Of a stretch of 64,000 nt of DNA, positions 27,104 to 51,064 are shown piece after piece. The position numbers and the translations under genes were made by a program. The notes under the pieces were generated by a model that was given only the letters and a program-made list of their open reading frames with translations, ran no database searches and had not been told where the DNA came from. Position 1 is the first letter of the stretch; each line of letters begins with the position of its first letter. This DNA is from Thermoplasmata archaeon (lineage in GTDB: Archaea; Thermoplasmatota; Thermoplasmata; Lutacidiplasmatales; UBA184), in the NCBI GenBank assembly GCA_021819135.1, contig JAKASE010000001.1:75375-139374 (forward strand). The letters run 5' to 3'.

Positions 27104-27336
27104 GAGGCAGTTTCCGCATCCCGGTCCATCCGCCGATCGCGACGCGCACCGGCCCGTCGCCGGATCTCGGCGAGGACGAGGACCGGTTCGTCGACCGGCC
27201 CTGCTACGAGTTCAACGCGCTGCTTCGGCCGTCGTGGGACGACCGTCACTGCTCGCACTGCCGCCATTACCTCACCGCCCGGTGCCCCCACATCGACGAG
27301 TTCCTCGACGACGTGGACGATTTGTCCCCGGAGTGA
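27100..27336 (+). CDS. hypothetical small Cys/His-rich protein (78 aa)
   Basis: GTG overlaps lon stop (GTGA); high GC3; C-x17-CSHC-x9-CPH pattern; acidic C-terminus. Confidence 0.35.
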
Positions 27337-27348
27337 GTCGGGGCGGCC

Positions 27349-27888
27349 GTGCGCGGTCTCCTGATCGGGCGGTTCCAGCCGTTCCACCGGGGTCACCTCG
27401 CGGTCGTACGGGAGATCCGCGAGCGTCGGCCGGAGGCGCCGCTCCTGATCGGCATCGGGAGCGCCGAGGAGTCGTACACCTGGAAGAACCCGTTCACCGC
27501 CGGCGAACGGTTCGAGATGATCTCTCGCGCTATCGACGAGGCGGGGCTCTCGCGGGTCGAGGTGGTCCCGATCGCCGACATCCGGCGTCACGCGCTCTGG
27601 GTCCGGTACCTCGAGGGCCTCTTGCCCGGGTTCGACCGGGTCTACACGAACAATCCGCTCACCCGGCTATTGTTCGAGCGGTCGGGCTACGAGGTCGAGC
27701 GCCCGACGCTCGTGGACCGTCGTCGGTTCGAAGGGATCGGCGTCCGGGAGCGGATCGCCTCCGGACGGGGCTGGAAAGAGCTCCTTCCCCCGTCGGTTGC
27801 TCGGTACCTCGCCGAGATCGGCGCTCCGGCGAGACTTCGCCTGCTGAAGGCGGGCGAGGGTCGGTCGTCGGGGGGTCGTCGCCGGTGA
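27349..27888 (+). CDS. nadM: nicotinamide-nucleotide adenylyltransferase (archaeal NMNAT)
   Basis: GTG-start MRGLLIGRFQPFHRGH matches archaeal NMNAT signature; 179 aa. Confidence 0.85.
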   Translation: MRGLLIGRFQPFHRGHLAVVREIRERRPEAPLLIGIGSAEESYTWKNPFTAGERFEMISRAIDEAGLSRVEVVPIADIRRHALWVRYLEGLLPGFDRVYTNNPLTRLLFERSGYEVERPTLVDRRRFEGIGVRERIASGRGWKELLPPSVARYLAEIGAPARLRLLKAGEGRSSGGRRR

Positions 27889-29126
27889 GCGATCCGCCCT
27901 CCTCCGATCCCGGTTCGGAGGGCCCGAAGCGCCGGTCGCGCTTCGAACCCTTGCCGCCCTGGGTCGGCCCGTCCACCGCGGTCGTCCATGGCGGCCGTCG
28001 GCCCGACTACAACGCGGGGTCGGTCGTCCCGCCGATCTACCAGACCTCGACGTTCCACTGGCCGGCCGACCGCTCCGAGTCGTCGGACCGGGCCGAGGCC
28101 TACCTCTACAGCCGGGTGCGGAACCCGACGGTCGAAGTGCCGACCGAGGTCATCCGGGCCCTCGAGGGCGGGGAGGACGCCCGCCTCTTCGGCTCCGGCA
28201 TGGGCGCGATCACCGCGTCCGTCCTCTCGCTCCTTCGTTCGGGCGACTCGGTGGTGGCGCTCGCGGGGCTGTACGGGGGGACGACCGACTTCCTCACCGA
28301 CCACCTCCCCCGCTTCGGCGTGACGGTCCGAGAGGTCTCGGACGACGCGGCGCGCGACCCGGTCGCGTCGGTCCCCCCGGGAACCGCGCTCGTGATCGTC
28401 GAGAGCCCGACCAATCCGCTCCTCCGGGTGCACGACCTCGCCCAGTGGGCCGAGGCGGCGCACCGCGCGGGCGCCCTCCTGCTCGTCGACAACACCTTCG
28501 CGACCCCGATCAACCAGAACCCGCTCGCGCTCGGCGCCGATCTGGTGGTGCACAGCGCGACCAAGTACCTCGGAGGGCACTCCGACCTCATCGCCGGGGC
28601 GGTGGTCGGGTCGGCGTCGTTGATCCAACGGATCGACGCGAAGAGCTACCTCGGCGCGCCGCTCGACCCGTTCGCCGCCTTCCTCTTGGCCCGCGGGCTG
28701 AAGACGCTCGCGCTCCGGGTCGCCCGTCAGAACGAGAACGGCCGACGGGTCGCGGGCGCGGTACGGGCCCATCCCGCGGTCGCGCGCGTCCACTACCCGG
28801 GTTGGGGATCGGGGGAGGAGGAGGCGGTCGCGGCGCGGCAGATGCGGGGGCGCGGCGGCATGCTCTCGATCTCCCTGAACGGGGGGGCGCCGGCCGCCGA
28901 GCGGTTGCTTTCCTCCCTGCGCCTGGTGCACCCGGCGGCGAGCCTCGGCGGGGTGGAGAGCCTCGCCAGCGTGCCCCGGAAGACCTCGCACCGGCACTTC
29001 ACCTCAGAGCAGCTCGGGGAGCGCGGGATCGACGAGGGTCTCGTCCGGTTCTCCCTCGGCATCGAGGAGCCGGAGGACCTGGTCCGGGACTTCACCGAGG
29101 CGCTCGATCGCGTGACGAGCCCGTAG
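27885..29126 (+). CDS. PLP-dependent Cys/Met metabolism enzyme (cystathionine gamma-synthase/lyase or O-acetylhomoserine sulfhydrylase family)
   Basis: GTG overlaps nadM stop (GTGA); SATKYLGGHSD lysine-PLP motif; 413 aa. Confidence 0.8.
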   Translation: MSDPPSSDPGSEGPKRRSRFEPLPPWVGPSTAVVHGGRRPDYNAGSVVPPIYQTSTFHWPADRSESSDRAEAYLYSRVRNPTVEVPTEVIRALEGGEDARLFGSGMGAITASVLSLLRSGDSVVALAGLYGGTTDFLTDHLPRFGVTVREVSDDAARDPVASVPPGTALVIVESPTNPLLRVHDLAQWAEAAHRAGALLLVDNTFATPINQNPLALGADLVVHSATKYLGGHSDLIAGAVVGSASLIQRIDAKSYLGAPLDPFAAFLLARGLKTLALRVARQNENGRRVAGAVRAHPAVARVHYPGWGSGEEEAVAARQMRGRGGMLSISLNGGAPAAERLLSSLRLVHPAASLGGVESLASVPRKTSHRHFTSEQLGERGIDEGLVRFSLGIEEPEDLVRDFTEALDRVTSP

Positions 29127-29763
29127 AGGGCTCGACGGCGCTCACCAGCAGCCGGCGCCGGGCGTGCCGGGGCGACTCGAGCTCGTCGGCGACCGCCACC
29201 GCGAGATCGGCCAGCGAGAGGGTCCGCGCGGGCGGACCTCCCCCGTGCGGGTCGATGCCCGTGTGGTAGCCGCCGGTACGCTTTCCGTCCGCCACGGGTC
29301 CCTCCGGACAGACGTAGGTCCAATCGACCTCCTGCTCCTCCCGAAGGAGATCGAACGTCGACCGGGCGGGGGCGCCCGGGGCCTCGGCGGCGCGCTCCGG
29401 GACGGCCTCGCCCCCCGTGCTCCGCTTCGCCGGGGCCCAGCCCCTCTCCTCGACCACGAGCACGCGGGGCCCGCGGGCCTCGCGCAACCCCTCGAGGAGC
29501 GTGGAGGTCGCCGCATTGAGGTCCGTACCTCGCCCCCGTCCGGGTCGGCCGATCGCCGAAACGGCCGCGTCGTGCCCCGGCAGGACCGCGGAGACGGTCG
29601 CCCGATCCCGTAGGTCGCCGCGGACGAACCGGACCGGTGAGCCCGGAGGGGCGGCGGAGACCGGGCGGCGGACGACCCCGGTCACCCGGTGACCCCGACG
29701 TACCAGCTCCTCGGTCACTCGGGCTCCGACCCGGCTCCCGGCGTCAAAGACGATGACCCTCAT
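29092..29763 (-). CDS. NAD(P)-binding NmrA/SDR-like oxidoreductase
   Basis: MRVIVFDAGSRVG Rossmann N-terminus; 223 aa from ATG 29763. Confidence 0.6.
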   Translation of the reverse strand: MRVIVFDAGSRVGARVTEELVRRGHRVTGVVRRPVSAAPPGSPVRFVRGDLRDRATVSAVLPGHDAAVSAIGRPGRGRGTDLNAATSTLLEGLREARGPRVLVVEERGWAPAKRSTGGEAVPERAAEAPGAPARSTFDLLREEQEVDWTYVCPEGPVADGKRTGGYHTGIDPHGGGPPARTLSLADLAVAVADELESPRHARRRLLVSAVEPSTGSSRDRAPR

Positions 29764-29891
29764 CGTGCCGAACTGGCCAGTTCCGGTACGCCCGCCTGGC
29801 ATATGAACCCAAAGTCGGGGCGCCGCCGCCGCGGGCGGCGAGGCGCGGCGAAACCGAACCGGGACGCGGTCGGAGGGGGAAGCGCGCTACG

Positions 29892-30563
29892 GTGCGCCCC
29901 CGAGGGGCCGCGGGTGCTCCGTGCCCGTCAATTCGCCTCGACCTTGGGTTCATCGTGCCCGTACGCGTCGGCGGAACCGGTTTCGACCGACCGAGGAGGA
30001 CCGGGTGCCAGGGGGCGTCGAGCACGACAGGCACAAGACGCCACTACCGAAGCAAGGTCGAGGTCCTGCGTGACCTCCTCGAGGCGTCCCGGGTGGACCA
30101 CGGTAAGACCCACATCATCGGTCGGGCCTTCCTCAACGAGGACCTCTTCGAGCGGTACGCTTCCTTGGCCCTCTCCGAGGGTCTCCTAGAGGCCGTCGAG
30201 GGGGGATACCGGGTCACTCCTTCCGGTATCACGTGGCTGGAGGCAGTCCGCCGCGTGCTCGAGAAGCGTACCGCGCTCGCTTCCGCGCTCAGTGAGCTGG
30301 CCCGGATCTCGGACCGTTCACCGGCCCCGAGGACGTGGGACGCCCCGCCGGTGGAGCGCAGCGCGTCAAGCCTCTCCGCCGAAGAACACCCGCCGGCGCT
30401 CGATTCGGTGATCGAGGAGCTCGGCCTCCCCGGCACCCGTTCCCCGCCCTCCCCTCGGGGCGAGGGCGCCGGCGGAGCGTCGGCATCCTCCCGGGTCCGA
30501 GTCGATCTCGCGCGAGGCGTGTCGCCCCGGCGCCGGCCGCCGAGGCGAAGGAGCCGTCCGTGA
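29892..30563 (+). CDS. HTH_45-type winged-helix protein with disordered C-terminal tail (start uncertain: ATG 29892 or GTG 29955)
   Basis: RHYRSKVEVLRDLLEASRVDHGKTHIIGRAFLNEDLFERYASLALSEGLLE matches archaeal HTH_45 (RSKIEIL.DIL...); translationally coupled (GTGA) to downstream membrane/peptidase gene. Confidence 0.55.
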   Translation: MRPRGAAGAPCPSIRLDLGFIVPVRVGGTGFDRPRRTGCQGASSTTGTRRHYRSKVEVLRDLLEASRVDHGKTHIIGRAFLNEDLFERYASLALSEGLLEAVEGGYRVTPSGITWLEAVRRVLEKRTALASALSELARISDRSPAPRTWDAPPVERSASSLSAEEHPPALDSVIEELGLPGTRSPPSPRGEGAGGASASSRVRVDLARGVSPRRRPPRRRSRP

Positions 30564-31894
30564 TCTCACCTACGGGAGTCCGCGGCGTACGTCCCTGGCT
30601 TCTCTTCGCTGCCGTGCTCGCGGTCGGGCAGTCGGTCTACTTCGCGACCCCCACGCTCACTCCCGAGGTCGCCCGAGCGGTCAGTCTCGCCGTCCCGCTC
30701 AGCGCGCTCGCGCTCTTCTTCCTGTTCGTCCGGTGGGACGGGAGTACGCCGCGCGACCACGGGCTCTTCCTGCCCCCCGACCCGGCCCGGGCCCTCGGCG
30801 TCGCCGCGCTGCTGGTCGGGGTCTACCTCATCGCCGTCCTCGAACCCGGGTTCGGCTTCGGGTTCCTGGCGGGGGCCGAGGACACCGTGGACAGCGTCCT
30901 CTACTGGATCGCGTACGCTCCGCTCACCGCCCTGGCCGGCGAGGCGGTCTTCCGAGGGTATCTGCTCGATCGCTGGCTCAAGCCGGGCACCCTACCGGCG
31001 TCGCTCGGGGTCTCCTCGGTGCTCTTCGCGGTCGCCGGGACGAACGTGGTCGTCCTCGAAGGGCTCGAGCCGGTCTCGTTGGGACGACTGCTGCTCAGCC
31101 GCGTTGCCCCGCTCGTCGTCCTCGGCGTCGTGCTCGGCTTCTACTACCTCTGCGCCGCGAGGAACCTGCTCGGGCCGTTCGTCCTCCGTACCGGGATCCT
31201 CCTCTTCGTGGGACTCTCGCCGCTCCTCGCCGGCTCGCCCGGCTGGCAGCTCTCCCTGCTCCTCGAGCTGTTCGCCTACGGTCTCGTCCTCGCGCTCCTG
31301 CTCGTCCTGTACCGACCGTCGCGCTTCCTCGCCCGCGCCTATCTCGGGGAGAGGTTCGGTCCCCGCCGGGGACGGTTCCGGGAGATCCGGGAGCGTCGGA
31401 GAGAGCGTCGGTCCCTGGTCGTCGCGAGCGTGGCCGTCGCGCTCGTGCTGTCGGGGACGTTCGTCACCCTCGTGACGACCCTCGGGACCAATCCCCCGTT
31501 CCTCGCCATCTCGAGCGATAGCATGAGCCCGACGATCCACCGGGGGGACATCGTTCTCGTCCGGCAGGCCGACGCCGCGTCGATCGGCGTCGGAACGGTG
31601 ATCGCCTACTCCTCCTCCTGCATGCCCTCCCCGGTAGTACATCGTGTCGTGGCCGAGAGCCCGGGAACCGGCGGCCCAGTGTACACGACGAGGGGGGATG
31701 CGAACGGGGTGAACGATCCGTGTCCCGTGCCGATCGGCGCCGTCATCGGGCAGATCGTTCTGGTCGTTCCCCTCCTCGGTTTCTTCGCCCTCTCGCCGGC
31801 GTTGTCGGTCGGAACGGTGGTGATCGCGGTCGTCGCCGTCGCCCTGCTCCGGCCCTCGTCGTCGTCGTTCTCCCATCGGAGGTGGCATCGATGA
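30560..31894 (+). CDS. fusion protein: polytopic membrane domain (degenerate CPBP/Abi-like EAVFRG motif) + C-terminal type I signal peptidase (SipW/Sec11, S26B type)
   Basis: ~8 TM helices then TM anchor and SDSMSPTIHRGD (Ser box), VVHRVV (His box), TRGDANGVND (GDNN box). Confidence 0.75.
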   Translation: MISPTGVRGVRPWLLFAAVLAVGQSVYFATPTLTPEVARAVSLAVPLSALALFFLFVRWDGSTPRDHGLFLPPDPARALGVAALLVGVYLIAVLEPGFGFGFLAGAEDTVDSVLYWIAYAPLTALAGEAVFRGYLLDRWLKPGTLPASLGVSSVLFAVAGTNVVVLEGLEPVSLGRLLLSRVAPLVVLGVVLGFYYLCAARNLLGPFVLRTGILLFVGLSPLLAGSPGWQLSLLLELFAYGLVLALLLVLYRPSRFLARAYLGERFGPRRGRFREIRERRRERRSLVVASVAVALVLSGTFVTLVTTLGTNPPFLAISSDSMSPTIHRGDIVLVRQADAASIGVGTVIAYSSSCMPSPVVHRVVAESPGTGGPVYTTRGDANGVNDPCPVPIGAVIGQIVLVVPLLGFFALSPALSVGTVVIAVVAVALLRPSSSSFSHRRWHR

Positions 31895-33189
31895 AAGGTC
31901 CGATCGCAGGGGTGGCGGTGCTGATCGTGCTGGCCGCGTGCGCCGGGTACTGGATCGCGTACGACGAGTCCCACGCCTCCCAGACCCCGGTCTCCACCAC
32001 GTTCCAGTACGAGGAGACGGGGGTCTACTCGTACGTGGCCGAGCTGAAGAACAACTCGCTCTACGGACCGGTCAACCTGACGAACCCCAACGCGACCCTC
32101 TTCTACGGGATCACCTCGTGGCTTCACGTCACGTACGTCTACCACATCACGCTCGACCGGGTCGTGAACACGACCGTGAACGCCGAGGTGCCGGTGGTCC
32201 TGGAGAGCTCGGTCTGGTCGAAACCGCTCGGGGCACAGAACGCGACGTTCGCGGCGACCGGCGCGAGAGGGGCGACCCTCGCGGTCACCTACGACCTCAA
32301 CGTGACGTCGGTCGTCTCCTTGGTCTCGTCGATCGTGAACGACACCGGCTACCAGCCGGATGCCTTCGCCGTCCGGTTCAGCCCGACGGTGACGACCTCC
32401 GTGGACACGGGGGGCACGGTGGCTCCGGTAGAGTTCGCCTCCACGCTCGCGTTGAACTTCACCTCCCAGCAGATCGTGCCGAGCGCGCTCCTTTCCTCCG
32501 CTCGGGGGGCCCACACGATCCTTGGAAGCCCGACCGGCGGAGTGCCGGGGATCTGGGGGAACGCCTACCTTCCGATCGGGATCCTGGTCGCGAGCCTCGG
32601 GGCCGCCGGCTATCTCGGGCTCCGTCCGTCCGGCGGATCCGATCGCCACCCCCGATCCCGTCTCGAAGCCGACCTGCGGGCCTACCGGGACGAGATCGCG
32701 GAAACCGATACTCCCCCGCCGCGCCAGCCGTCGGTCGAGGTCCGGTCGTGGGCCGACCTGGTGAAAGTGGCCGACACCCTCGGGCGGCCGATCCTACGGC
32801 TGGCCGACGCGACCGGCGGGGCACGGGAGGGATCGGTCTTCTACGTCCTCGCGGATTCCGTGGCCTACGTCTACCGGATCGAGGAAGCGGACCGGCCCGG
32901 GGAACCGACCGGACTCCGGGGCCCATCTCGCGACGCCCCCGGTCCGGCGGGATCCGTCGACATCCGGGCCGCCGTCGGCGAAGGGGACCGATCGCTCGGA
33001 CGGTTCGTTCGGGAAGTGAGCGACGTCAGCGAACGCCTGCGGACGAGCGGGGTCGGGGGCGAGCCTCGGAGAGAGGTGGACGCGCTCCTCCTTCGCGCGA
33101 TCGCTCGGGCCCGGCAAGGGCATCTGGACAGCGCGGAGCGGCTCCTTCGCGAAGCGGCCGAGCGAGCGGGTCGGACCGACCTCCGATAG
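31891..33189 (+). CDS. membrane-anchored N-glycosylated protein with SipW-cognate-like signal peptide (TapA-like accessory/fibre subunit candidate)
   Basis: ATG overlaps upstream stop (ATGA); N-terminal GVAVLIVLAACAGYWIAYDE resembles GGTWAAFND-type SipW-cognate signal; >10 sequons; second TM near residue 250 and cytoplasmic tail. Confidence 0.6.
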   Translation: MKGPIAGVAVLIVLAACAGYWIAYDESHASQTPVSTTFQYEETGVYSYVAELKNNSLYGPVNLTNPNATLFYGITSWLHVTYVYHITLDRVVNTTVNAEVPVVLESSVWSKPLGAQNATFAATGARGATLAVTYDLNVTSVVSLVSSIVNDTGYQPDAFAVRFSPTVTTSVDTGGTVAPVEFASTLALNFTSQQIVPSALLSSARGAHTILGSPTGGVPGIWGNAYLPIGILVASLGAAGYLGLRPSGGSDRHPRSRLEADLRAYRDEIAETDTPPPRQPSVEVRSWADLVKVADTLGRPILRLADATGGAREGSVFYVLADSVAYVYRIEEADRPGEPTGLRGPSRDAPGPAGSVDIRAAVGEGDRSLGRFVREVSDVSERLRTSGVGGEPRREVDALLLRAIARARQGHLDSAERLLREAAERAGRTDLR

Positions 33190-33336: not shown

Positions 33337-33876
33337 ATGTCGGGCAAGTGGGTTGTGGGACTGGTCGGAGTGTTCGTCGTGCTGGGCGTCGCGGGGGTCG
33401 GATTCGCGGCCTTCACGGACCCGTTGACCATCAATGGGAGCGCCACGGCAGGTACCTTGGACGTGCATATCGTGGACTACAGCAACAACGTCGCCTACCC
33501 GGGACACACGTACCTCACGCATCTCAGCGGTGACAAGAAGTCGATCGACCTCTATGCGTGGAACCTGGTTCCGGGCCAGTACCCGAACGAGCAGGTGAAG
33601 CTGAAGAACGTCGGCACGCTCCCGGCGCACATCGCCGTCACGCTCGTCAACAGCGACGGGAACCTCGTGGCCATGGGCGGCGCCGATGCCTTCGATGTCC
33701 AGACCACCTCGGGGCTCACCGCGGTGGGAGGTGTCTGGAGCGTCACACACTGGGTGACCCTCTACCCGGGCCACTCGATCTGGGACACGATCTACGTCGG
33801 GATCCCGGCGGGATCGACGTCCGCACCGGCGAGCACGACCTTCACGATCGTGTACACCGCGACCGCGGGCACCTGA
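33337..33876 (+). CDS. TasA/camelysin-like (peptidase M73 fold) secreted protein with SipW-cognate class signal peptide
   Basis: Signal VVGLVGVFVVLGVAGVGFAAFTD (G-x-G-F-A-A-F-T-D); GTLDVHIV...NLVPGQYPNEQVKLKNVGTLPAHIAVTLV parallels TasA GTLDL...NLKPGD...F.NNGSL. Confidence 0.7.
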   Translation: MSGKWVVGLVGVFVVLGVAGVGFAAFTDPLTINGSATAGTLDVHIVDYSNNVAYPGHTYLTHLSGDKKSIDLYAWNLVPGQYPNEQVKLKNVGTLPAHIAVTLVNSDGNLVAMGGADAFDVQTTSGLTAVGGVWSVTHWVTLYPGHSIWDTIYVGIPAGSTSAPASTTFTIVYTATAGT

Positions 33877-34208: not shown

Positions 34209-35018
34209 CTAGGCCGGCAGCCCGCCGTCGATCGGTACCCCGGTCCCGAACATCCCGATCGCCGATCCGAGGGCGACGAGCCAGGACAGCGGCGGGAGAT
34301 GGAGGCTACCGGGCCAGACCTCGGGGAACCGCTTCCGCTTGTCGCCCGAGCGTCCGACCGGTGCCCGCGCCGCCCCCGCATCATGGGACAATGGCCGGTG
34401 AGCAGAGCGCGAGAGGGACCCGGCAGCGAATGTCGGTGCCGACGCGTAGGCGGAGCCCGACGGAATGCTCGGGATCGGCGCCCGTGACGCGGTAGGAGGA
34501 AGACGGACCCTTGCGCCCTCGACCAAGGCGCCCGCGGGTTCTGGCGGGGCCTTCAAAGCGACGACCCACCGATGCCACCGCCCTTCCGCGGACCGGCCTT
34601 CGGCATCCCGGACGGAGAGCGCGGTCAGATCCTCCACGGCGGTGGCGAGCTCCGTTCGACGCTGGATCACGAGGTTCGCCGCGTTGAGCCAATCCTTGCC
34701 CCGGTCCGTAGCGCGGAACCCTATCGCGGTCCGCCGGAGCAGGCCCTGTTGCAGGGCCACTCCGGAGTAGCGAGAGAACGAGTCTTCGTTGAGGTTGGCC
34801 CGCCCGATGAGGCGGCCTTTCCGCATCTCCGACACCGCGGCGGCCACGAGGTCTCGGAGAACCTCGACCTTCGTTCGATACCGCCGACTACCGGTGCTCG
34901 TGGTCGTCCCCCCTCGGCCCGGGGCAAGCGTTCTCCCGGCGCCGGTGAAGGGCGCACGCGCTCCGATAAACGCATAGTGGCACGGAATTGACCTACCGGC
35001 CCGGTTCGCGCGCCTCAC
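34209..35018 (-). CDS. HTH_45-type winged-helix protein paralogue with C-terminal extension ending in a hydrophobic segment (start uncertain: GTG 35018 or ATG 35210)
   Basis: RRYRTKVEVLRDLVAAAVSEMRKGRLIGRANLNEDSFSRYSGVALQQGLL paralogous to 29892-30563 including the conserved TT.TG.RR.YR pre-helix segment. Confidence 0.5.
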   Translation of the reverse strand: MRRANRAGRSIPCHYAFIGARAPFTGAGRTLAPGRGGTTTSTGSRRYRTKVEVLRDLVAAAVSEMRKGRLIGRANLNEDSFSRYSGVALQQGLLRRTAIGFRATDRGKDWLNAANLVIQRRTELATAVEDLTALSVRDAEGRSAEGRWHRWVVALKAPPEPAGALVEGARVRLPPTASRAPIPSIPSGSAYASAPTFAAGSLSRSAHRPLSHDAGAARAPVGRSGDKRKRFPEVWPGSLHLPPLSWLVALGSAIGMFGTGVPIDGGLPA

Positions 35019-35382: not shown

Positions 35383-35455
35383 GCCACTGTAGCTCAGTCG
35401 GCAGAGCGGCTGATTCGTAATCAGCAGGTCGGGGGTTCAAGTCCCTCCAGTGGCT
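35383..35455 (+). tRNA. tRNA-Thr (CGU)
   Basis: 73-nt cloverleaf: acceptor GCCACTG/CAGTGGC, D-arm GCTCAGTCGGCAGAGC, anticodon loop TTCGTAA, T-arm GGGGGTTCAAGTCCCTC; TATA-like CTTATGA ~30 nt upstream. Confidence 0.85.
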
Positions 35456-35499: not shown

Positions 35500-36742
35500 A
35501 TGGGTCAATCCCCGGTCGAACCGGCCGCCGACAATCGCCGGTTCGACATCCACGACACGCACGCCCAGATCGCCCACGCGGAGGCCCGACTGCGCTCAGG
35601 GGACTCGGGGGTCCCACCCGAGACCGCTCAGGCGATCCTCGAGTTCGTTGAGGCTCGTAGAGAAGCCGTCTCCGCGCAGAGGACGGTGACCTACCTTCGC
35701 GAATCTCCAGGCGGCCTCGAAGAGACTCGGCCGGGACCTTCTGGAACCGAACCGGGAGACGCCCGCGAAGTTCCTGCGGGCCTACCGCGAGAAGGAGGTC
35801 TGGACCAAGCTCACTGTGCGCTCCGTCCTCTACTCATTCTGGAAGTGGCGGTTCAATCGTGATGGGAAGGACTTCCCCCGCTGGCTCAAGATACCGCTCT
35901 CTGCGCGAGGGGCGAGCCGGAAAGACCACAACGATGTGTTGACCCCGGAGGAGGTCGCACGCATCGCCGATCACACAGTCAACCTCCGCGACAAGGCTCT
36001 GATCTGGGTCCTCTACGAGAGCGGAGGACGGATCGGCGAGGTGCTGACCCTGCGAATCGGCGACGTGGAGAGAACCGAATACGGGGCGGTCCGCCTCTAC
36101 TTTCCGACGGGAAAGACCGGTCGACGAACTGTCCCCCTCTTTGAAGCCGCGGTGCCGAACCTTCTCCTCTGGCTCAAGAACCATCCCCGAGCCAGCGACA
36201 GGGACGCTCCCCTCTGGGTCCAGATCGAGCAGGCGAACCCGAGCGGAAGTGGAATCGGCTACCGCTACGTCGTCAAGTTGCTCGAGCGAGCGGCGGCCCG
36301 CGCCGGCGTGGCGAAGCCGGTGAATCCGCACAGCTTCCGGCATTCCCGAGCCACGGCTGTGGCACAGAATCCCCAAGTCTCGACCTCGGTGCTCGAGAAG
36401 TTCTTCGGTTGGCAGCCGGGTTCGTCGATGGCGAAGACGTACGTTCACCTGTCGGGCAAGGAAGTCGAGGACGCCCTTGCCCGAGCCCACGGGATCGACC
36501 TCGGCAGATCGGAAACTCCGATGTCGAAGCTCCCGCGTGTGTGCGCCCGCTGCTCTACCTCAAACGACCCTGACGGGAAGTTCTGCGTCCAGTGCGGTGG
36601 TCCGCTCAGTCTTGAAGGCGTGGAGGAGCGGGCGAAGTGGAAGGCCGAGGAAGATGCGCTTGCCAACCTTCTTGACGACCCGAAGGTCCGCTCATTCATC
36701 GCGCGCCGGCTGAGGGTACATCTCGGCCGTGCAGAGGCGTAA
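35500..36742 (+). CDS. tyrosine recombinase/integrase, apparent +1 frameshift near 35690-35700 (N-terminal domain in frame of 35500, catalytic domain in frame of 35816)
   Basis: Catalytic boxes GGRIGEV (Arg), HSFRHSRAT (His-x-x-Arg), KTYVHL (Tyr); C-terminal zinc ribbon CARC...CVQCG; frame-2 reading open from 35690 encodes genuine-looking FLRAYREKEVWTKL segment lacking any start codon. Confidence 0.75.
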
Positions 36743-45174: not shown

Positions 45175-46997
45175 CTACATCTGGCTGACCGCCGCCTTGC
45201 TCGCGCTCTCCAACCGGCTTACCGGCGAGGGAAACCTCGCCGGTAGCCTCCCCTGGACCGATCCGGCTAAATAGGTGTGGGTCTTACGTATGACCCACAT
45301 GGCGGTCAAGCACAACCGCGGCTCGGGCCGCTGTTACCTCTCCCAGTGGCGCACCTACCGCCGAGACGGCAAAGTCGTCAGCGAGTACGTCCGCTACCTC
45401 GGCCTCTGCCCCGAGCACAATGCCGGTCCCTCCACCTCCGTCCTCGACCGCACGGTCCACGGCTCTTCCTATCGGGCGGGAGCGGTCCGACTGCTCTGGA
45501 GCCTCGCCGACGATTTGCAGTTCCGGGCCTCCATCGACCGGATCTGCGGCCGAGATTCCGACCCTTCCGAGCCCTCTCCGGGCCAAACCCTGACGGCCTG
45601 GGCCATCAACCGGGTCCTCGATCCCGCCAGCGCCACCCGCCTCGAACTGTGGACGCCCACCACCGACCTACCTCTCCTCGCTGGGGTCTCGGCGGACGCC
45701 TGGGCGAAGGACACCTTCTTGCGCGCCCTCGACCGGATCTGCTACGACGACCCGGCGCTCGCCCAGGTGGTCGACCACACCGCCGAACTCGAGGAGACGC
45801 TGAGCGCCGGGTGGCGGGAGCGCCACCCGCTCCTGAAGGGGACGAAGGAGGTGATGGCCTACGACCTGACGAACGTGCTGTTCTTCGGCGTCACCTGCCC
45901 GATCGCCACTCCGGGTAGGAACCCCGATCACCAGAATCGGCTCCAAGTGAACGTCGGCGCCGTGGTGAGCCGTCACGACCGGATGCTCTGGCGGCACTTC
46001 GTCTACCGGGGGAACCGGCACGGCGTGGGAACGATGCGGAACCTCTTGGTGGAGCTCCAGCGGGCCCAAGTGGCCCCCGGATTGCTCATCGTGGACCGAG
46101 GCCTCGTGGGCCGGGAGATCGTCGAGGAGGTTCGGGCGGTCGGCTGGCAGCTGCTTGGGGGGCTCTCGCGGAGTTCGAAGGAGGTTCGGGAGATCCTCGA
46201 CACGGCGAAGCTGCGAGAGAACCCCTCGACGTTCGTTCAGAAGACCCGAACGGGGGCGATCTACGCCGCGAAGGTCCGGGCGAGGCTCTGGAAGTCGGAG
46301 CAGGAGGTGGTGCTCTACACGAACGCGGAGCACGCGATGGACGATCGGGTGGAACGGGACCGTGCGCTCTCGATGATCGGGAAGGTGCTCGACACGCTCT
46401 CGGAGAAGGGGAAGGACTGGTCGGAAGGGAAGCTCCACGAGGCGATCGAGGGCGTGCTCGGGGAATCGGCGGAGTTCGTGAACGTCCGGGTGCGTCGGGG
46501 CGGGGCCACGCCGAGAGTGGCGTGGTCCTTTCGGGATCGGGCGGTGAAGGCGGCGGCCCGGCGGGACGGGAAGTACGTGCTGCTCTGCACGGACCCGGGG
46601 CTGTCGGCGGCGGAGGTGGTGGAGCAGTATCTGGGGAAGGACTTCGTGGAGAAGGCGTTCCGGACGTTCAAGTCGGGGATCGAGGTGGAGCCGGTGCGGC
46701 ACCGTCGGGAGCGGCGGGTACGGGCCTACCTGTTCGTGTGTGGGCTCGCGTATCGACTGGAGATGGCGCTTCGGTGGAAGCTCCTGGAGGGCGGTGTGAA
46801 GCCGGAGGACGTAGCGGAGTACCAGGAGCGGCTGCTGGAGGAGCTCGGACGCGTGGAACGAACCGAGGTCCGGCTGGGAGCTCAGGCCCGAACGTGGTAT
46901 CTGAATGTCACGGACCGCGTCCGGGAGGGGTTGAGGCGCCTCAAGCAGACCGGGTTGCTCCAAGAAGGGCCCGTCGCGACCGCGGTACCGGCGTAGG
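45175..46997 (+). mobile_element. IS1634-family insertion sequence with 9-bp target-site duplication TCATAGTAC
   Basis: Direct repeats at 45166-45174 and 46998-47006 flank a 1.8-kb segment carrying a single transposase gene. Confidence 0.65.
45290..46996 (+). CDS. IS1634 family (IS4 superfamily) DDE transposase
   Basis: MAVKHNRGSGRCYLSQWRTYRRDGKVVSEYVRYLG N-terminus and C-terminal YLGKDFVEKAFRTFKSGIEV (Y-x2-R-x3-E-x6-K) signature. Confidence 0.85.
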   Translation: MTHMAVKHNRGSGRCYLSQWRTYRRDGKVVSEYVRYLGLCPEHNAGPSTSVLDRTVHGSSYRAGAVRLLWSLADDLQFRASIDRICGRDSDPSEPSPGQTLTAWAINRVLDPASATRLELWTPTTDLPLLAGVSADAWAKDTFLRALDRICYDDPALAQVVDHTAELEETLSAGWRERHPLLKGTKEVMAYDLTNVLFFGVTCPIATPGRNPDHQNRLQVNVGAVVSRHDRMLWRHFVYRGNRHGVGTMRNLLVELQRAQVAPGLLIVDRGLVGREIVEEVRAVGWQLLGGLSRSSKEVREILDTAKLRENPSTFVQKTRTGAIYAAKVRARLWKSEQEVVLYTNAEHAMDDRVERDRALSMIGKVLDTLSEKGKDWSEGKLHEAIEGVLGESAEFVNVRVRRGGATPRVAWSFRDRAVKAAARRDGKYVLLCTDPGLSAAEVVEQYLGKDFVEKAFRTFKSGIEVEPVRHRRERRVRAYLFVCGLAYRLEMALRWKLLEGGVKPEDVAEYQERLLEELGRVERTEVRLGAQARTWYLNVTDRVREGLRRLKQTGLLQEGPVATAVPA

Positions 46998-47008
46998 TCA
47001 TAGTACGA

Positions 47009-50000
47009 GTGCGCTGTTCAGGTAGCAAGTCGTCTTTCATTCCCAACCTCTATCTCCAGAACCTCTCCGCCGACCGGCTGTTCACCTGGTACGTTACCCT
47101 GAAGGCGACCTACGACGAGACCGATTACTGGATCATCCACAACGCGTGCACGACCCGGGAGGGTGTGACAAACCTGGGGAACAACGTCGTCCAGGGTCCC
47201 GCGTCGGTCTCGATGAGCGGGGGATCCGAGGACTCGACGACCTTGACCACTTCGGCCCAGGTGATCGAGAAGGGTACCAGCGATGTCGAGCTTCAGTGGA
47301 ATAACTCCATGATGGCGGATGGCCAAGGGGTCATCAGCCCGTCCATGGGCGGTAGTGGCCTCTCCGGGTTCGTCTACCAGGCGTCCTGGAACGACACTCA
47401 CACGTTCAGCAGTGGTGTGGCCTACGAAGCCGCCGTGAACACTTCGAGCTATCCGGGAGGTTGGAACAGCTCCTGGAAGCCGTCGATGTCCGCCGCCGAG
47501 CAGACCTCGTCACCGGTGCAGGCCACGAACTCCGTGTGTCAGTTCGTGTATCAGACCAACACGCTCAGCCTCCATGGACTCGTGGGGGTCGGAGGACCGA
47601 ACGACACCGCGACGGTGACTTGGTGGGCGAACGGCTTCGGGGTGGGCGTGCTCGAATACTCGGAGGTCGGCACGTCGTGGAGCCAGACCGTGACGTCGGT
47701 CGTAACGACCGATTCCAATGGGACTGACAAGTACACGGCGACCGTCCACGGCCTGCCCGGTACCGCGTTCTACTCCCTAACGGCCACGACGACGGTGGCC
47801 GCCGGGGGATGCCTCAGTCTCTCGAACGCGATCTCGTCCACGGCGTTCTTCGGACAAGGGTTCACGCTGACGCCGTTCGCGTACGCCTACGATTCGATCA
47901 CGCAGCAAGGTGGCGGTGAGGGGATCTACGCATACCTGTCGCCCCAGTTGTATACCCTCTACACGCAAAGCACGGTAAGTTCGACCGGAGGCTACCTGGA
48001 CTACGGACCGGCCAACGACGCGGGGCCGAACATCACCATCCCCATCTCGTCGCTATCTTCCATCACCTGTGGAGGGAACTGCTTCCTGGTGAACATCACG
48101 CCTACGAGTCCGAACCTGAACTATGTGGTCCAGGAGACGCTCAACTTCTCATGGGACGGCGGATCGTACTCCATGCACAGTGCTCCGACGACCTTCAACT
48201 ACCTCTGGGACACATCGGGGGATGGCCTGACGGATGCGGAGAAGGTCCGCGGCTGGAACGTGACCTACCAGGACCTTGCGGGCACCTACCACACCCGCCA
48301 CGTCACGGCCGAACCCAGCGCCTTTGCGACCAATGGACTCGTGGGAGACTACGTGGAGAAGGAGTTCGGGCTCGACCCGGGCACGGTCGACACGGCAGGC
48401 AGCCACATGCTCGATACATGGAACCTAACGTTCAATCTCCAGCCGGCAGGCGGGAGTCTACCTACCGGCTCGGACCTCCGAGTCTGGTACGAGAACTCGA
48501 CCTACGAGCCGTTCGCGGCAGGTCTTCAGTATTCCCACGGGCTCTATGAGACGGGCAATCCACCGGCCAGCGAGCGGAACGCGACCAACATCTCCGCCAC
48601 GGGAGGCGTCAACATCGGGGACGGGAGCCCATGGGCATCGACTGCGCTCTTCAGCTACCCCGCGCTCGAGACATTCGTCGGTCTGTCCGGTGTCCAGAAC
48701 GCGGGCTGGCTGCGGGCCGTCGAGGGGAGCTGGCAGGGGATCCCGACCCTCACGGTCGAAGGGAAGCTCTCTTGGGGGGCGGATCCCCTGGCCGCATCCA
48801 CCCCGAACGACGGGGTTTCGGACGGGGCGCGGGTCAACCCGCTCTACGATGTCGGTCTCGAGTTCCATTCCGTCTATGCGAACCTGACCGGGCTCGGGTC
48901 GGGCAACGATGGCAATGGCTACGCGGTCGAGATGGTCGAGGGCTACACCGATGATGGCGGGAACTGGCGATACATCAACAACTACTCCACGCCAGCGGTA
49001 TACGGCAACAGCAGCTCCCACCATGGAGACGTCACCGACTACACCACCACGTTGCCGGTGGGTCAAACCCAGCCGACCCAGACGATCTCGCTCGAGGTGG
49101 CGGAGAACATCACTCCGGGCCAGGGGCCCCAGCCGGCCTATATCAACGGGAGCGGTACCGGAATCTCCGAAACGTACGACCTCGTCCGAGGAGGCAATTT
49201 AGTCGTGAATGTCGTCGGCTGGTCCGGGCACGGCGGCTACTCCACGCTCTACGGGGTGTTCACGGAGGTGCCGATGGGAACCAAGGCGCCGACGTGGCTC
49301 TGGGTCCCCACGGACAACTCGACCGTCAACGGTCTCCCGATCGGCCTCCAGCGATACACCGGCGAGCAGTCGTTCGACCTCGTGGTCGTGAACGTCTCCT
49401 CCTCGGCCCTCTCCTCCGACCCGATCCCGCTCCCGTGGGGCGGGACGACACCGACCGGGATCCCGCTCTCGGCCGGCCTGAACGACTTCCTGGTCCCGCG
49501 GGAGCAGTTCCTCTACTCTCCCTTCGGCCAGGCGATCTTCCTCGGGAAGAGCACGAGCTTCAATGCCTCCCAAGCCCTGCCGTTCAACGGCTCGATCGAG
49601 TGGGGCGACATATCGGGGTTCGGCAGTCCGAACCCGATGGTCGACCTCGGCGCCTACTGGCAGAACCGGGCCATCGCCTCCGGACCGGGGAACATCACCG
49701 GGTATAACGAGACCGGTACCGCCGCGGGCACCACGGATGCCATCTCGGTGATGGTCGGTCCGTCCGCCACCACTGCCAACACCGGCGGCCTCCCCTCGAA
49801 CCCGAGCCTCTACTCGACCGTCGGCGATCCCTCGGCCCTGCAGTCCATCGTCACCCTCAACATCACCAGCCCGGACACGCTGGACCTCCTCCTCGCCGCC
49901 CTGCTCGATAACACCACGGGCGGATCCAACGCGGTGAACGGTACCCTCGAGTCCGTCACCTACCAGATCGGGTTCCTCGGACTGAACCCGACCGTACTCA

Positions 50001-51064
50001 ACGCGATCCCGAACGGGACAGAGCCGAACGACGGGCTCTACGGACAACCGAGCAGCACCTGGCCGCCGAACCCGCCGAGCAGCCTCTGGGGCTCCTTCTG
50101 GAACGCGGTCACGAGCTTTGTGGTCAACCCGCTCGGCACGGTCCTGTCGCTCGTCAACACCGTGTGGGACGCCGCTACGGCCGCGTTCACGTACCTGAAC
50201 CACCTCGCGCACGAAGCGGTCGCGATCGGGGCGGAGGTCGTGGCGCGGACCGCAGCCGCGATCGTGCAGGCGGGGAGGGAGATCGCGAACGCGTTCGAGG
50301 TGTTCTTGAACTGGCTCTACACGCTCGTCAAGGACGCACTTGCGGTGGTTATCGACCCGATACTTAACGCGGCCCAGAGTTTCGACAGCACTCTAGCGAC
50401 TCGGGCCAACGTGACTGTGAGCGACCAAGGCTCACTCGGTTACGTGACCCCCGCTGATGGGCTAACTTGGGCACGGGCATTCGACCCAGTAGCCTACCTT
50501 GGGTTTGCATTCGCAGTCGGTATCACCATCGTAATCGGGATTGTTACAGCCGTCACTCTAGGAGCAGGGTTCGTTGTCGGGGTGATCTTGTCCCTCATTC
50601 CCACGCTCGCGCAAGAGCTAATCCATGGACTGGCGACAGTGACGTCACTCACTTCGAGCGCGGTGACAACTCTCGAAGATAGCTTCTCCAACTCGGTCTC
50701 GCAGACTGACTGGGAAGCTTTGGCAGGTGCCGTATCGATCGGGGCGTCGAGCTTCGACTTCTTCTTTGCGTTGGCGACAGCGGCGATGAAGGGACTCACC
50801 AACACCATCGCAGGTACCCTCGCCCTCTCCATCATCGTTGACCTCGTCGTCTTTGTGGTGAGCATCGTGAACTGGGCGAGTCATCTCGCAGACATCGCCA
50901 TCGCCGCCCTCTTGCTGGCGGGCGCCGGAACGTATGTCGCGTTCAGAGCACTGGGTGCGAGCGCGAGCATTCCGGAATTGAAGACTTACGCCACCGTCTC
51001 CGTCATCTTGGCTGGAGTGGGACTTGCTGCTGCCGGGGCCGATGTCCATCTGGCGGAGTCGTGA
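47009..51064 (+). CDS. giant (1351 aa) N-glycosylation-sequon-rich surface protein with C-terminal multi-TM domain; no recognisable signal peptide
   Basis: >70 N-x-S/T sequons, S/T/G-rich beta-like sequence, 6-8 hydrophobic helices in last 300 aa; GTG start 12 nt after IS1634 end. Confidence 0.6.
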   Translation: MRCSGSKSSFIPNLYLQNLSADRLFTWYVTLKATYDETDYWIIHNACTTREGVTNLGNNVVQGPASVSMSGGSEDSTTLTTSAQVIEKGTSDVELQWNNSMMADGQGVISPSMGGSGLSGFVYQASWNDTHTFSSGVAYEAAVNTSSYPGGWNSSWKPSMSAAEQTSSPVQATNSVCQFVYQTNTLSLHGLVGVGGPNDTATVTWWANGFGVGVLEYSEVGTSWSQTVTSVVTTDSNGTDKYTATVHGLPGTAFYSLTATTTVAAGGCLSLSNAISSTAFFGQGFTLTPFAYAYDSITQQGGGEGIYAYLSPQLYTLYTQSTVSSTGGYLDYGPANDAGPNITIPISSLSSITCGGNCFLVNITPTSPNLNYVVQETLNFSWDGGSYSMHSAPTTFNYLWDTSGDGLTDAEKVRGWNVTYQDLAGTYHTRHVTAEPSAFATNGLVGDYVEKEFGLDPGTVDTAGSHMLDTWNLTFNLQPAGGSLPTGSDLRVWYENSTYEPFAAGLQYSHGLYETGNPPASERNATNISATGGVNIGDGSPWASTALFSYPALETFVGLSGVQNAGWLRAVEGSWQGIPTLTVEGKLSWGADPLAASTPNDGVSDGARVNPLYDVGLEFHSVYANLTGLGSGNDGNGYAVEMVEGYTDDGGNWRYINNYSTPAVYGNSSSHHGDVTDYTTTLPVGQTQPTQTISLEVAENITPGQGPQPAYINGSGTGISETYDLVRGGNLVVNVVGWSGHGGYSTLYGVFTEVPMGTKAPTWLWVPTDNSTVNGLPIGLQRYTGEQSFDLVVVNVSSSALSSDPIPLPWGGTTPTGIPLSAGLNDFLVPREQFLYSPFGQAIFLGKSTSFNASQALPFNGSIEWGDISGFGSPNPMVDLGAYWQNRAIASGPGNITGYNETGTAAGTTDAISVMVGPSATTANTGGLPSNPSLYSTVGDPSALQSIVTLNITSPDTLDLLLAALLDNTTGGSNAVNGTLESVTYQIGFLGLNPTVLNAIPNGTEPNDGLYGQPSSTWPPNPPSSLWGSFWNAVTSFVVNPLGTVLSLVNTVWDAATAAFTYLNHLAHEAVAIGAEVVARTAAAIVQAGREIANAFEVFLNWLYTLVKDALAVVIDPILNAAQSFDSTLATRANVTVSDQGSLGYVTPADGLTWARAFDPVAYLGFAFAVGITIVIGIVTAVTLGAGFVVGVILSLIPTLAQELIHGLATVTSLTSSAVTTLEDSFSNSVSQTDWEALAGAVSIGASSFDFFFALATAAMKGLTNTIAGTLALSIIVDLVVFVVSIVNWASHLADIAIAALLLAGAGTYVAFRALGASASIPELKTYATVSVILAGVGLAAAGADVHLAES

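Follow-up and report, generated by a model that had tools for sequence, protein, structure and literature searches.

Gene content of the locus

We analysed a 64,000-nucleotide stretch of a Thermoplasmata archaeon contig (JAKASE010000001.1, positions 75,375 to 139,374; hereafter the window), in which an operon runs in the order HTH_45 regulator, fusion gene, DUF5305 gene and AbpX-like pilin gene. Its features, in window coordinates, are:

29892..30563, + strand: winged-helix regulator (HTH_45 / Sso10a-like), the operon's first gene; Pfam HTH_45, NCBIfam Sso10a_fam
30560..31894, + strand: fusion gene, 444 aa, 10 predicted TM helices; degenerate CPBP domain, basic cytoplasmic linker and predicted Sec11/SipW-type signal peptidase I
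30560..31309, + strand: N-terminal Rce1/CPBP-fold domain of the fusion, aa 1-250, 8 TM, catalytically degenerate
31310..31414, + strand: cytoplasmic linker of the fusion, aa 251-285, YRPSRFLARAYLGERFGPRRGRFREIRERRRERRS; 14 K/R, no in-frame start codon
31415..31849, + strand: signal peptidase I module of the fusion; TM anchor aa 286-310, ectodomain with Ser321, His361 and Asp386, C-terminal TM aa ~407-430
31891..33189, + strand: DUF5305 membrane protein, 432 aa; Pfam DUF5305 35.4 bits against a cut-off of 29
33337..33876, + strand: AbpX-like (TasA-superfamily) fibre subunit, 179 aa, with a SipW-cognate-type signal peptide
34209..34847, − strand: second, paralogous HTH_45 regulator, which closes the locus; 212-aa gene call, longest ORF reaching 35210

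The upstream regulator ends 4 nt into the fusion gene, its stop codon and the fusion start overlapping as GTGA, and the ATG of the DUF5305 gene overlaps the fusion TGA (ATGA). The upstream regulator matched Pfam HTH_45 at 34.5 bits (cut-off 25.5); the NCBI call of this gene is shorter (156 aa). The second regulator fell short of the gathering score for the same family (23.9 against 25.5 bits; E 4e-5) and matched the first HTH gene at E 6e-25. HTH_45 genes were present in 21 of 34 loci encoding the fusion, mostly just upstream of it, and also in many loci where its two halves are separate genes (split loci). DUF5305 genes were found in 33 of the 34 fused loci; of 50 split loci, 43 had one directly preceding the N-domain gene. 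DUF5305 has been proposed as a signal-peptidase accessory subunit, TafG-like (PMC11821415; 10.64898/2026.01.04.697558).

Cleavage of the pilin is predicted between ...VGFA and AFTDPL..., which places a Phe at P2', the situation also seen in TasA. Its score against TIGR04088 (cognate_SipW) was 17.1 bits, below the cut-off of 19. Searched against the PDB, the pilin sequence by itself gave no meaningful match; AbpX was reached by the family profile (A5) only (9sj2, E 3.4e-10; 9rhp, E 1e-7), which also matched TasA weakly. Peptidase_M73/camelysin was matched in 5 of 18 pilin homologues, and pilin homologues adjoined the peptidase in 33/34 fused loci. The same gene module also occurs in Picrophilus. 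By its gene content, the locus is a predicted AbpX-type TasA-superfamily fibre operon.

One gene rather than two

The fusion gene was originally predicted to be a continuous ORF joining a true signal peptidase I to a CPBP-like domain of about eight TM helices. The ORF is indeed unbroken (longest form 30335..31894, 519 aa), and the 444-aa form starting at GTG 30560 is identical to a database protein (P0001). An AlphaFold2 model and a hydropathy scan both gave eight helices, the peptidase anchor and one C-terminal TM, ten in all. The polytopic part that the prediction placed before the peptidase is real, at ~285 residues with eight TM helices. HMM scores, the predicted fold, and the recurrence of the architecture in ~34 Thermoplasmata loci and in Picrophilus and Ferroplasma all bear out the fusion.

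We considered whether this is not one protein, either because an assembly or sequencing error has merged two genes or because the peptidase is made separately from an internal start, as the original prediction had itself allowed. Bathyarchaeota relatives are two genes divided exactly at the fusion point, and the orthologue of Picrophilus oshimae DSM 9789 is recorded as pieces of 270 aa and 147 aa. Against an error, the frame is kept open in the ~34 loci, and several independent contigs (NCBI, ENA and Logan) encode exactly the same 444-aa protein. Against an internal start, the window has no in-frame ATG, GTG or TTG between 31208 and 31430; the next in-frame start falls within the peptidase TM anchor. 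Nor is any start codon conserved in the orthologue linkers, most of which have none at all, while the linker is conserved as protein sequence. Fused and split families alike retain its EP...YLGE part, directly after which the split N-domain genes terminate. Because no start is available here or conserved among orthologues, and because the linker is conserved as protein, the two-gene reading fails in this lineage and we regard it as extremely improbable. The fusion is a genuine conserved archaeal gene, not an artefact.

The signal peptidase module

All three S26B boxes named in the original prediction are present: SSDSMSPT, with Ser321 at nt 31520-31522; VHRVV, with His361 at nt 31640-31642, where bacterial P-type enzymes have Lys instead; and RGDANGVNDP, with Asp386 at nt 31715-31717. 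The three residues were invariant in 20 homologues. The module scored 86.6 bits against NCBIfam TIGR02228 (sigpep_I_arch; curated cut-off 51.85). The family profile matched human SEC11A/C at E 2e-19, aligning the peptidase boxes with SEC11A SGSMEP, VHRV and GDNNxxDD; we take the human counterparts of Ser321, His361 and Asp386 to be Ser56, His96 and Asp122. On these grounds the module is a Sec11/SipW-type signal peptidase I (MEROPS S26B) and is predicted to be active. The predicted topology places a basic loop with 14 K/R before TM9, the ectodomain between TM9 and TM10, and a basic tail at the C-terminus. With this arrangement the catalytic domain would lie outside the membrane, consistent with an extracytoplasmic active site.

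A CPBP-fold domain without its catalytic residues

The N-terminal domain matched Pfam PF02517 (Rce1-like) at 32.8 bits (gathering score 22.4), and PF02517 matches were precomputed for most homologues. It is predicted to adopt the eight-TM Rce1 fold. Within the match lies a remnant of motif 1, G127-E128-A-V-F131-R132-G133, at nt 30938-30958 (EAVFRG, 30941-30958). Searched against PDB sequences, a profile of the N-domain only gave no match even at E 10, so that kinship with Rce1 and SpdC is supported by the Pfam HMM and the fold and not by pairwise similarity.

The original prediction described this domain as carrying a degenerate EAVFRG motif with neither FxxxH nor HxxxN, and as probably inactive. 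Alignment with canonical CPBP proteins (P0211-P0215) agrees on both points. FxxxH and HxxxN/D motifs were absent from the domain, which has Gly160 at the FxxxH His position and Arg210 and Leu214 at the HxxxN positions. Across the family, the first Glu of EExxxR is replaced by G/Q/V/T/S/Y, the motif-2 His by G/A/T/Q/D/K, the motif-3 His by R/Q and the Asn/Asp by L/M/F. Since all four catalytic positions are substituted, we interpret the domain as a CPBP homologue that is not predicted to be a protease. Fused and split families nevertheless retain E128, F131, R132, G133, S152 and F156; E128 and R132 are invariant in both, and E95 is conserved in the fused clade.

This conserved E128/R132 pair, with E95 in the fused clade, could reflect a residual or different activity. 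The protein might then be a bifunctional protease, its CPBP domain cutting within the membrane through non-canonical residues, either to introduce a further cut into the pilin or the DUF5305 protein (for example, myxosortase-like removal of a C-terminal anchor) or to degrade the released signal peptide. A signal-peptide-peptidase role beside a signal peptidase makes sense, and CPBP proteases can serve as sorting enzymes, as in the case of myxosortase (PMC11980579). However, the residues found in every member at the four substituted positions are chemically incapable of the catalysis, the pilins have no C-terminal TM anchor, and SpdC, SpbR and LnsB of S. aureus, whose motifs are similarly degenerate, have no protease activity. 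We consider a bifunctional protease very unlikely.

Fused and split forms across archaea

The ~34 fused loci in Thermoplasmata correspond to about 32 species-level genomes and about 30 clusters at 50% identity, and the fused form was seen in 20 homologues down to 26% identity. Fused proteins also occur in the cultured Picrophilus torridus, as the 399-aa Q6L0J3, and Ferroplasma, and in Asgard archaea. The Asgard relatives were the only gain from a word-index homology search with diverged fused proteins, which did not reach Pyrodictium; cluster look-ups for other peptidases with N-terminal extensions yielded nothing informative.

In Bathyarchaeota, each half has its own gene, and the two genes lie next to each other in the order found in the fusion. 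The N-domain gene encodes 270-290 aa ending in ...RYGLEG, and we counted as genuine split genes those with this ending and a stop codon inside the contig. A signal peptidase gene of 170-200 aa followed 1-26 nt later in 57 of the 67 informative loci. Two other kinds of candidate were rejected: an N-domain-only sequence of 275 aa (P0046) was truncated at a contig end, and multi-segment matches in Clostridia that looked like large fusions (e.g. L043) were several separate small genes of SipW-like type with TasA-like genes between them.

The original prediction took homologues split at the fusion point as an argument against a fusion. Such homologues do exist, in another phylum, yet they do not refute the fusion: because the Bathyarchaeota halves are adjacent, they strengthen the functional link. 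The occurrence of both fused and adjacent-gene forms is Rosetta-stone evidence that the two halves are functionally linked.

A proposed role in fibre subunit processing

We propose, with a probability of about 0.6, that the fusion is a single ten-TM protein acting as the dedicated signal peptidase of an AbpX-type fibre operon, with a dead CPBP domain as its membrane partner. A Sec11/SipW-type peptidase using Ser321, His361 and Asp386 would work outside the cell, covalently joined to an inactive eight-TM domain of the CPBP/Rce1 fold. Its most likely substrate would be the neighbouring pilin, whose SipW-type signal peptide it would cut between ...GFA and AFTD. The CPBP domain would most likely be a non-catalytic membrane partner that fixes the orientation of the peptidase TM anchor and ectodomain, and the pilin signal peptide may be bound in its former substrate cavity. 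The two modules and the DUF5305 protein may make up a small dedicated signal-peptidase complex. The data show which domains are present, that the CPBP catalytic residues are lost, that the fusion is conserved and has split-gene relatives, and which genes make up the operon; we infer physical cooperation of the two modules, the substrate, and the kind of effect, which may be activating, specifying or restraining. In the AlphaFold2 model, the packing of the two halves is undefined, since pLDDT is only 53-64 in the linker and TM9 region and pTM is 0.60.

The fusion might instead be built as we describe but with its CPBP-like domain serving as a brake or gate, an SpbR-like inhibitor, and not as a positioning or activating scaffold. 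The peptidase would then be prevented from acting on general secretory proteins, or would stay inactive until engaged by the pilin or the DUF5305 protein. The only case characterised by experiment in which a degenerate CAAX-like protein pairs with a signal peptidase I is one of inhibition (PMC12260438), and the domain is conserved alongside the peptidase in fused and split forms alike. We rate a built-in brake as unlikely, though it deserves serious consideration.

It is doubtful, but conceivable, that the dead CPBP domain, the Sec11-type peptidase and DUF5305 form a three-part complex that is both a cutting and a fibre-assembly platform. In that case, the pilin signal peptide or N-terminal donor strand would be retained within the membrane by the CPBP cavity and, once cut, the subunit would pass straight into donor-strand polymerisation. 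Such a complex, if it exists, would supply the assembly platform so far missing for TasA/AbpX/Tafi fibres, which use neither chaperone nor usher, and its presence in Asgard archaea would bear on the origin of multi-subunit signal peptidase complexes.

Returning to the dedicated peptidase with a dead membrane partner, the locus reveals no new kind of system. To our knowledge, thousands of prokaryotic proteins annotated as 'CAAX protease / Abi / CPBP' are without a known role, and the few known non-catalytic CPBP partners of membrane-anchored enzymes all come from Staphylococcus aureus. Our data add independent, purely genomic evidence that the partnership of CPBP proteins with type I signal peptidases is ancient and widespread in archaea, in fused form in Thermoplasmatota and in Asgard archaea, and as adjacent genes in Bathyarchaeota. 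Picrophilus torridus offers a tractable cultured host, and the fused and split forms a natural pair, for studying subunit processing and hand-over.

Comparison with known systems

The closest counterparts of the fusion are the peptidases of AbpX loci, where a ten-TM signal peptidase I with DUF5305 was already noted in a 2026 preprint (10.64898/2026.01.04.697558), one such peptidase being P. abyssi WP_338249487.1. Compared by description, those peptidases and the fusion share the TIGR02228 type, ten predicted TM helices, and adjoining DUF5305 and AbpX-like genes; the fibre class is characterised by calcium-dependent donor-strand complementation. The text of that preprint does not mention CPBP, CAAX or Rce1, and leaves the eight extra helices unexplained. 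Here, the extra helices are a degenerate Rce1/CPBP fold that is a separate gene in Bathyarchaeota, which, on that same comparison by description, would account for those of the AbpX-locus peptidases.

Dedicated Sec11-like peptidases encoded with TasA-superfamily subunits, as here, are also known in SipW of the Bacillus tapA-sipW-tasA operon and TafD of the haloarchaeal Tafi system. An aromatic P2' residue in the cleavage context is common to these systems and the window pilin, and DUF5305 (TafG) is a conserved neighbour of TafD at Tafi loci (PMC11821415). Unlike the fusion, SipW has about 190 aa and two TM helices, and TafD has 4 TM and a C-terminal extra domain; no CPBP-like domain has been reported for either. 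Rce1/CPBP proteases (PF02517; MmRce1, PDB 4cad) share with the N-domain a homologous eight-TM fold and the FRG signature of motif 1. They differ from it at the four catalytic positions, and the N-domain has an extra insertion of ~13 residues between motifs 2 and 3.

Degenerate motifs on a conserved CPBP fold, as found here, also mark the SpdC, SpbR and LnsB type described in PMC12260438. The original prediction suggested that the fusion tethers substrate processing to a membrane platform; this idea stays conditional, and SpbR-SpsB and SpdC-SagB now provide experimental precedents for it. SpdC (LyrA) scaffolds the single-pass hydrolase SagB in S. aureus (10.1101/2020.05.21.109470; PDB 6u0o), whereas that partner is a glucosaminidase and not a peptidase, the two are unfused, and sequence identity is 12%. 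SpbR, a degenerate CAAX-like protein, binds SpsB via the TM helix and ectodomain of the peptidase and controls its activity (PMC12260438). Like the N-domain, it is a polytopic CAAX-protease-like protein with degenerate EExxxR, FxxxH and HxxxN motifs, and its partner is a type I signal peptidase. By analogy with SpbR-SpsB and SpdC-SagB, the N-domain is likely to be a non-catalytic CPBP partner of the peptidase. The S. aureus pair, however, consists of two unlinked genes and a bacterial P-type housekeeping peptidase, with an inhibitory effect, whereas the archaeal system pairs a predicted dedicated Sec11/SipW-type peptidase with a CPBP-like protein, fused or adjacent to it, within a fibre operon.

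Results

Gene arrangement

The signal peptidase fusion gene is contained in an uninterrupted ORF (30335..31894, +) and lies in a part of the window with a G+C content of ~70%. Translated from the GTG at 30560, its 444-aa product is identical to database protein P0001 (NCBI, ENA and Logan; read on six contigs). A 4-nt overlap (GTGA) joins the start codon of the gene to the stop codon of the preceding one, and its own stop overlaps the downstream ATG (ATGA, 31891-31894), so the three genes are arranged as a translationally coupled operon. Ordinary metabolic genes lie upstream of the operon.

27234-29126, +, Cys/Met-metabolism PLP enzyme (Cys_Met_Meta_PP, E 3e-118; real gene ~413 aa)
29092-29802, -, NAD(P)H-binding NmrA-like protein
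29892-30563, +, HTH_45/Sso10a-like regulator
30560-31894, +, fusion gene
31891-33189, DUF5305 protein
33337-33876, pilin-like secreted protein
34209-34847, -, second HTH_45/Sso10a-like gene

The two HTH_45/Sso10a-like winged-helix genes are paralogous (mutual E 6e-25) and bracket the fibre operon convergently, which suggests dual or antagonistic regulation.

An intact peptidase and a degenerate CPBP domain

The C-terminal third of the fusion protein belongs to the Sec11/SipW type of signal peptidase I, scoring 86.6 bits with NCBIfam TIGR02228 (cut-off 51.85). In the alignment of the family profile to human SEC11A/C (E 2e-19) the SM, HR and GDxN..D boxes line up, and Ser321, His361 and Asp386 were invariant in 20 homologues. 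Judged by its sequence, the signal peptidase module is intact.

Over its first 250 residues the protein matches Pfam PF02517 (Rce1-like) at 32.8 bits against a gathering score of 22.4. An AlphaFold2 model, built from a 20-sequence alignment, had a pLDDT of ~90 over this domain and 77 overall (pTM 0.60); Foldseek gave structural matches to it at probability 1.00, with S. aureus SpdC as the best structural match. Ten TM segments were predicted from helices and charge distribution, eight of them within the CPBP fold, followed in order by a loop with 14 Lys/Arg (predicted cytoplasmic), the peptidase anchor, the ectodomain, the last TM helix and a basic tail. With this predicted topology the active site of the peptidase would lie outside the cell, as required.

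For comparison, the CPBP domain was aligned with five canonical members of its family, found as distant matches, which carry EExxFRG, FGLxH and HxxxN/D.

Table. Residues at CPBP motif positions in canonical proteins and in the fusion family.
Motif 1, first residue: canonical Glu; fusion family G/Q/V/T/S/Y
Motif 2: canonical His; fusion family G/A/Q/D/K
Motif 3, first residue: canonical His; fusion family Arg (or Gln)
Motif 3, last residue: canonical Asn/Asp; fusion family L/M/F

Motif 1 keeps its second Glu (E128), Phe (F131), Arg (R132) and Gly (G133), and S152 and F156 are kept too. With all four catalytic positions substituted, the alignment bears out the original prediction that this part is probably inactive, and shows, at the level of sequence, a catalytically dead pseudo-enzyme; that it keeps residual protease activity is quite unlikely. 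The pattern of degeneracy matches that reported for SpdC, SpbR and LnsB of S. aureus, which are non-proteolytic (PMC12260438).

One gene in Thermoplasmata

By word-index search, 21 homologues with the fused architecture were identified; they are 429-474 aa long, reach down to 26-36% identity and are annotated as 'signal peptidase I [Thermoplasmata archaeon]'. The full-length protein was found in ~32 species-level Thermoplasmata MAGs by genome scan, and ~30 clusters at 50% identity matched end to end in an exhaustive profile search. Picrophilus torridus (Q6L0J3, 399 aa), Ferroplasma and Asgard archaea have fused forms that are more diverged and 350-420 aa long. This conservation across homologues, MAGs and end-to-end clusters establishes the fusion as real. 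The original prediction had allowed for two genes with a hidden internal start. The window sequence has no in-frame ATG, GTG or TTG between 31208 and 31430, the linker is conserved as protein (..EPxxxARRYLGExFGPRRxRF..RRR..), and that alternative was therefore rejected for this lineage. The GTG at 31430 falls within the TM anchor, and a linker start codon was absent from most orthologues. Two proteins, or an artefact, in place of a fusion is extremely unlikely.

In P. oshimae DSM 9789 the orthologue is entered as two pieces, of 270 aa and 147 aa, and may be a frameshift or pseudogene. At one Thermoplasmata locus (L034, 5671-8358), an 895-aa maximal ORF runs across the fusion gene and DUF5305 region, which may reflect a triple fusion, a frameshift or an error of assembly. 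Bacterial DUF5305-peptidase fusions have been reported (10.64898/2026.01.04.697558).

Two genes in Bathyarchaeota

The same exhaustive profile search also gave a group of 271-291-aa proteins matched over the N-domain only, all ending ...RY(G/R)LE(G/S)*. A metagenome scan with these proteins yielded 80 loci, which were annotated with iterated HMMs. By NCBI names the family belongs to Candidatus Bathyarchaeota, and its members are annotated 'CPBP family ... intramembrane protease'. The usual order is HTH_45, 3-4 pilin genes, DUF5305, the N-domain gene and a signal peptidase gene of 170-200 aa. In 57 of the 67 loci with enough downstream sequence the last of these begins 1-26 nt past the N-domain stop, and DUF5305 is directly upstream of the N-domain gene in 43 of 50 split loci. 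Thus, one phylum encodes the two halves as neighbouring genes that are translated separately and another encodes them as a single gene, with the order unchanged, a classic signature of functionally interacting proteins. Homologues split at this position had been named in advance as evidence against a fusion; they exist, but only outside the window's lineage, and so support a functional link and do not refute the fusion.

A variant Bathyarchaeota arrangement (loci L092, L093, L096, L097, L100 and L165) has the N-domain gene, a ~1.4-kb gene, DUF5305 and signal peptidase, with one pilin gene upstream on the opposite strand.

A fibre operon of the AbpX/TasA type, a putative mobile element and a group II intron

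The HTH_45/Sso10a-like regulator lies upstream of the fusion gene and the DUF5305 protein downstream; beyond the latter is a secreted protein of 179 aa, with a signal peptide similar to the SipW-cognate class. This pilin scored 17.1 bits against TIGR04088, under the cut-off of 19; its family profile matches two solved structures of AbpX, 9sj2 (E 3.4e-10) and 9rhp, and TasA weakly. The AbpX mature N-terminus aligns with it at ...VGFA|AFTD, a predicted cleavage site in which positions -1 and -3 are small and P2' is Phe. In TasA, for which SipW is the dedicated peptidase, P2' is again Phe, and aromatic-P2' substrates are cleaved poorly by E. coli LepB (PMC10269814). DUF5305 and pilin genes accompany the fused peptidase in 33/34 loci. 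The Picrophilus torridus locus (L170; AE017261.1, 932335-947534) contains pilin-like, HTH_45 and DUF5305-like genes and the 399-aa fused peptidase; this cultured acidophile carries the same module as the window.

Mobile-element features lie elsewhere in the window.

35383-35455, tRNA-Thr(CGT)
35816-36742, tyrosine recombinase (Phage_integrase) ORF, directly after the tRNA
45275-46996, +, DDE_Tnp_1 transposase ORF
52926-54602, -, DDE_Tnp_1 transposase ORF
61774-62952, group II intron reverse transcriptase/maturase ORF (RVT_1, GIIM)
62959-63036, Intron_gpII (Rfam; 41.4 bits against a gathering score of 40), just after the maturase ORF

The ~20 kb beyond the integrase ORF have a lower G+C content (58-65% vs ~70%), and large ORFs within them, e.g. 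47009-51064 (1351 aa), had no Pfam match. The stretch 35383-56000 looks like a mobile element integrated at a tRNA gene, adjoining the fibre operon; 61774-63036 is a group II intron.

Discussion

Tafi loci of haloarchaea and Thermococcales combine a dedicated signal peptidase, TafD, with DUF5305 (TafG) and DUF1102/TasA-like pilins, and tafD deletion blocks pilin processing (PMC11821415; PMC12337348). A preprint on AbpX fibres notes signal peptidases with ten TM helices at AbpX loci and puts forward DUF5305 as a peptidase accessory subunit (10.64898/2026.01.04.697558). The fusion gene belongs to an architecture already noticed, being one of these fibre-dedicated ten-TM peptidases from a Thermoplasmata archaeon, and nothing in its locus is a new kind of system. 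CPBP, CAAX and Rce1 are not mentioned in the AbpX preprint text or one supplement, nor in the main text of the other fibre papers searched; the nature of the extra helices and the split form are not described in the fibre literature searched. What may be new is that the eight additional helices form a degenerate Rce1/CPBP fold and that this module is a separate gene in Bathyarchaeota.

Peptidase and dead CPBP domain are linked by fusion or adjacency, along with DUF5305 and AbpX-like pilins, and the CPBP domain would act as a membrane partner of the peptidase. As such it may position or activate the peptidase, confine it to its cognate pilins, or hold it in check. Such a role has two experimental precedents in S. 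aureus. SpdC attaches to both the TM helix and the ectodomain of SagB, a single-pass hydrolase, and orients the SagB active site (10.1101/2020.05.21.109470). The activity of the signal peptidase SpsB is controlled by SpbR, a CAAX-like protein with degenerate motifs, which likewise binds its partner at the TM helix and the ectodomain (PMC12260438). We favour this overall model, with a positioning or specificity role for the CPBP domain (probability about 0.6), over a pure brake on the peptidase, which is doubtful. The degenerate-CPBP identity and the Bathyarchaeota split gene make the S. aureus-type partnership of CPBP protein and signal peptidase look ancient and general.
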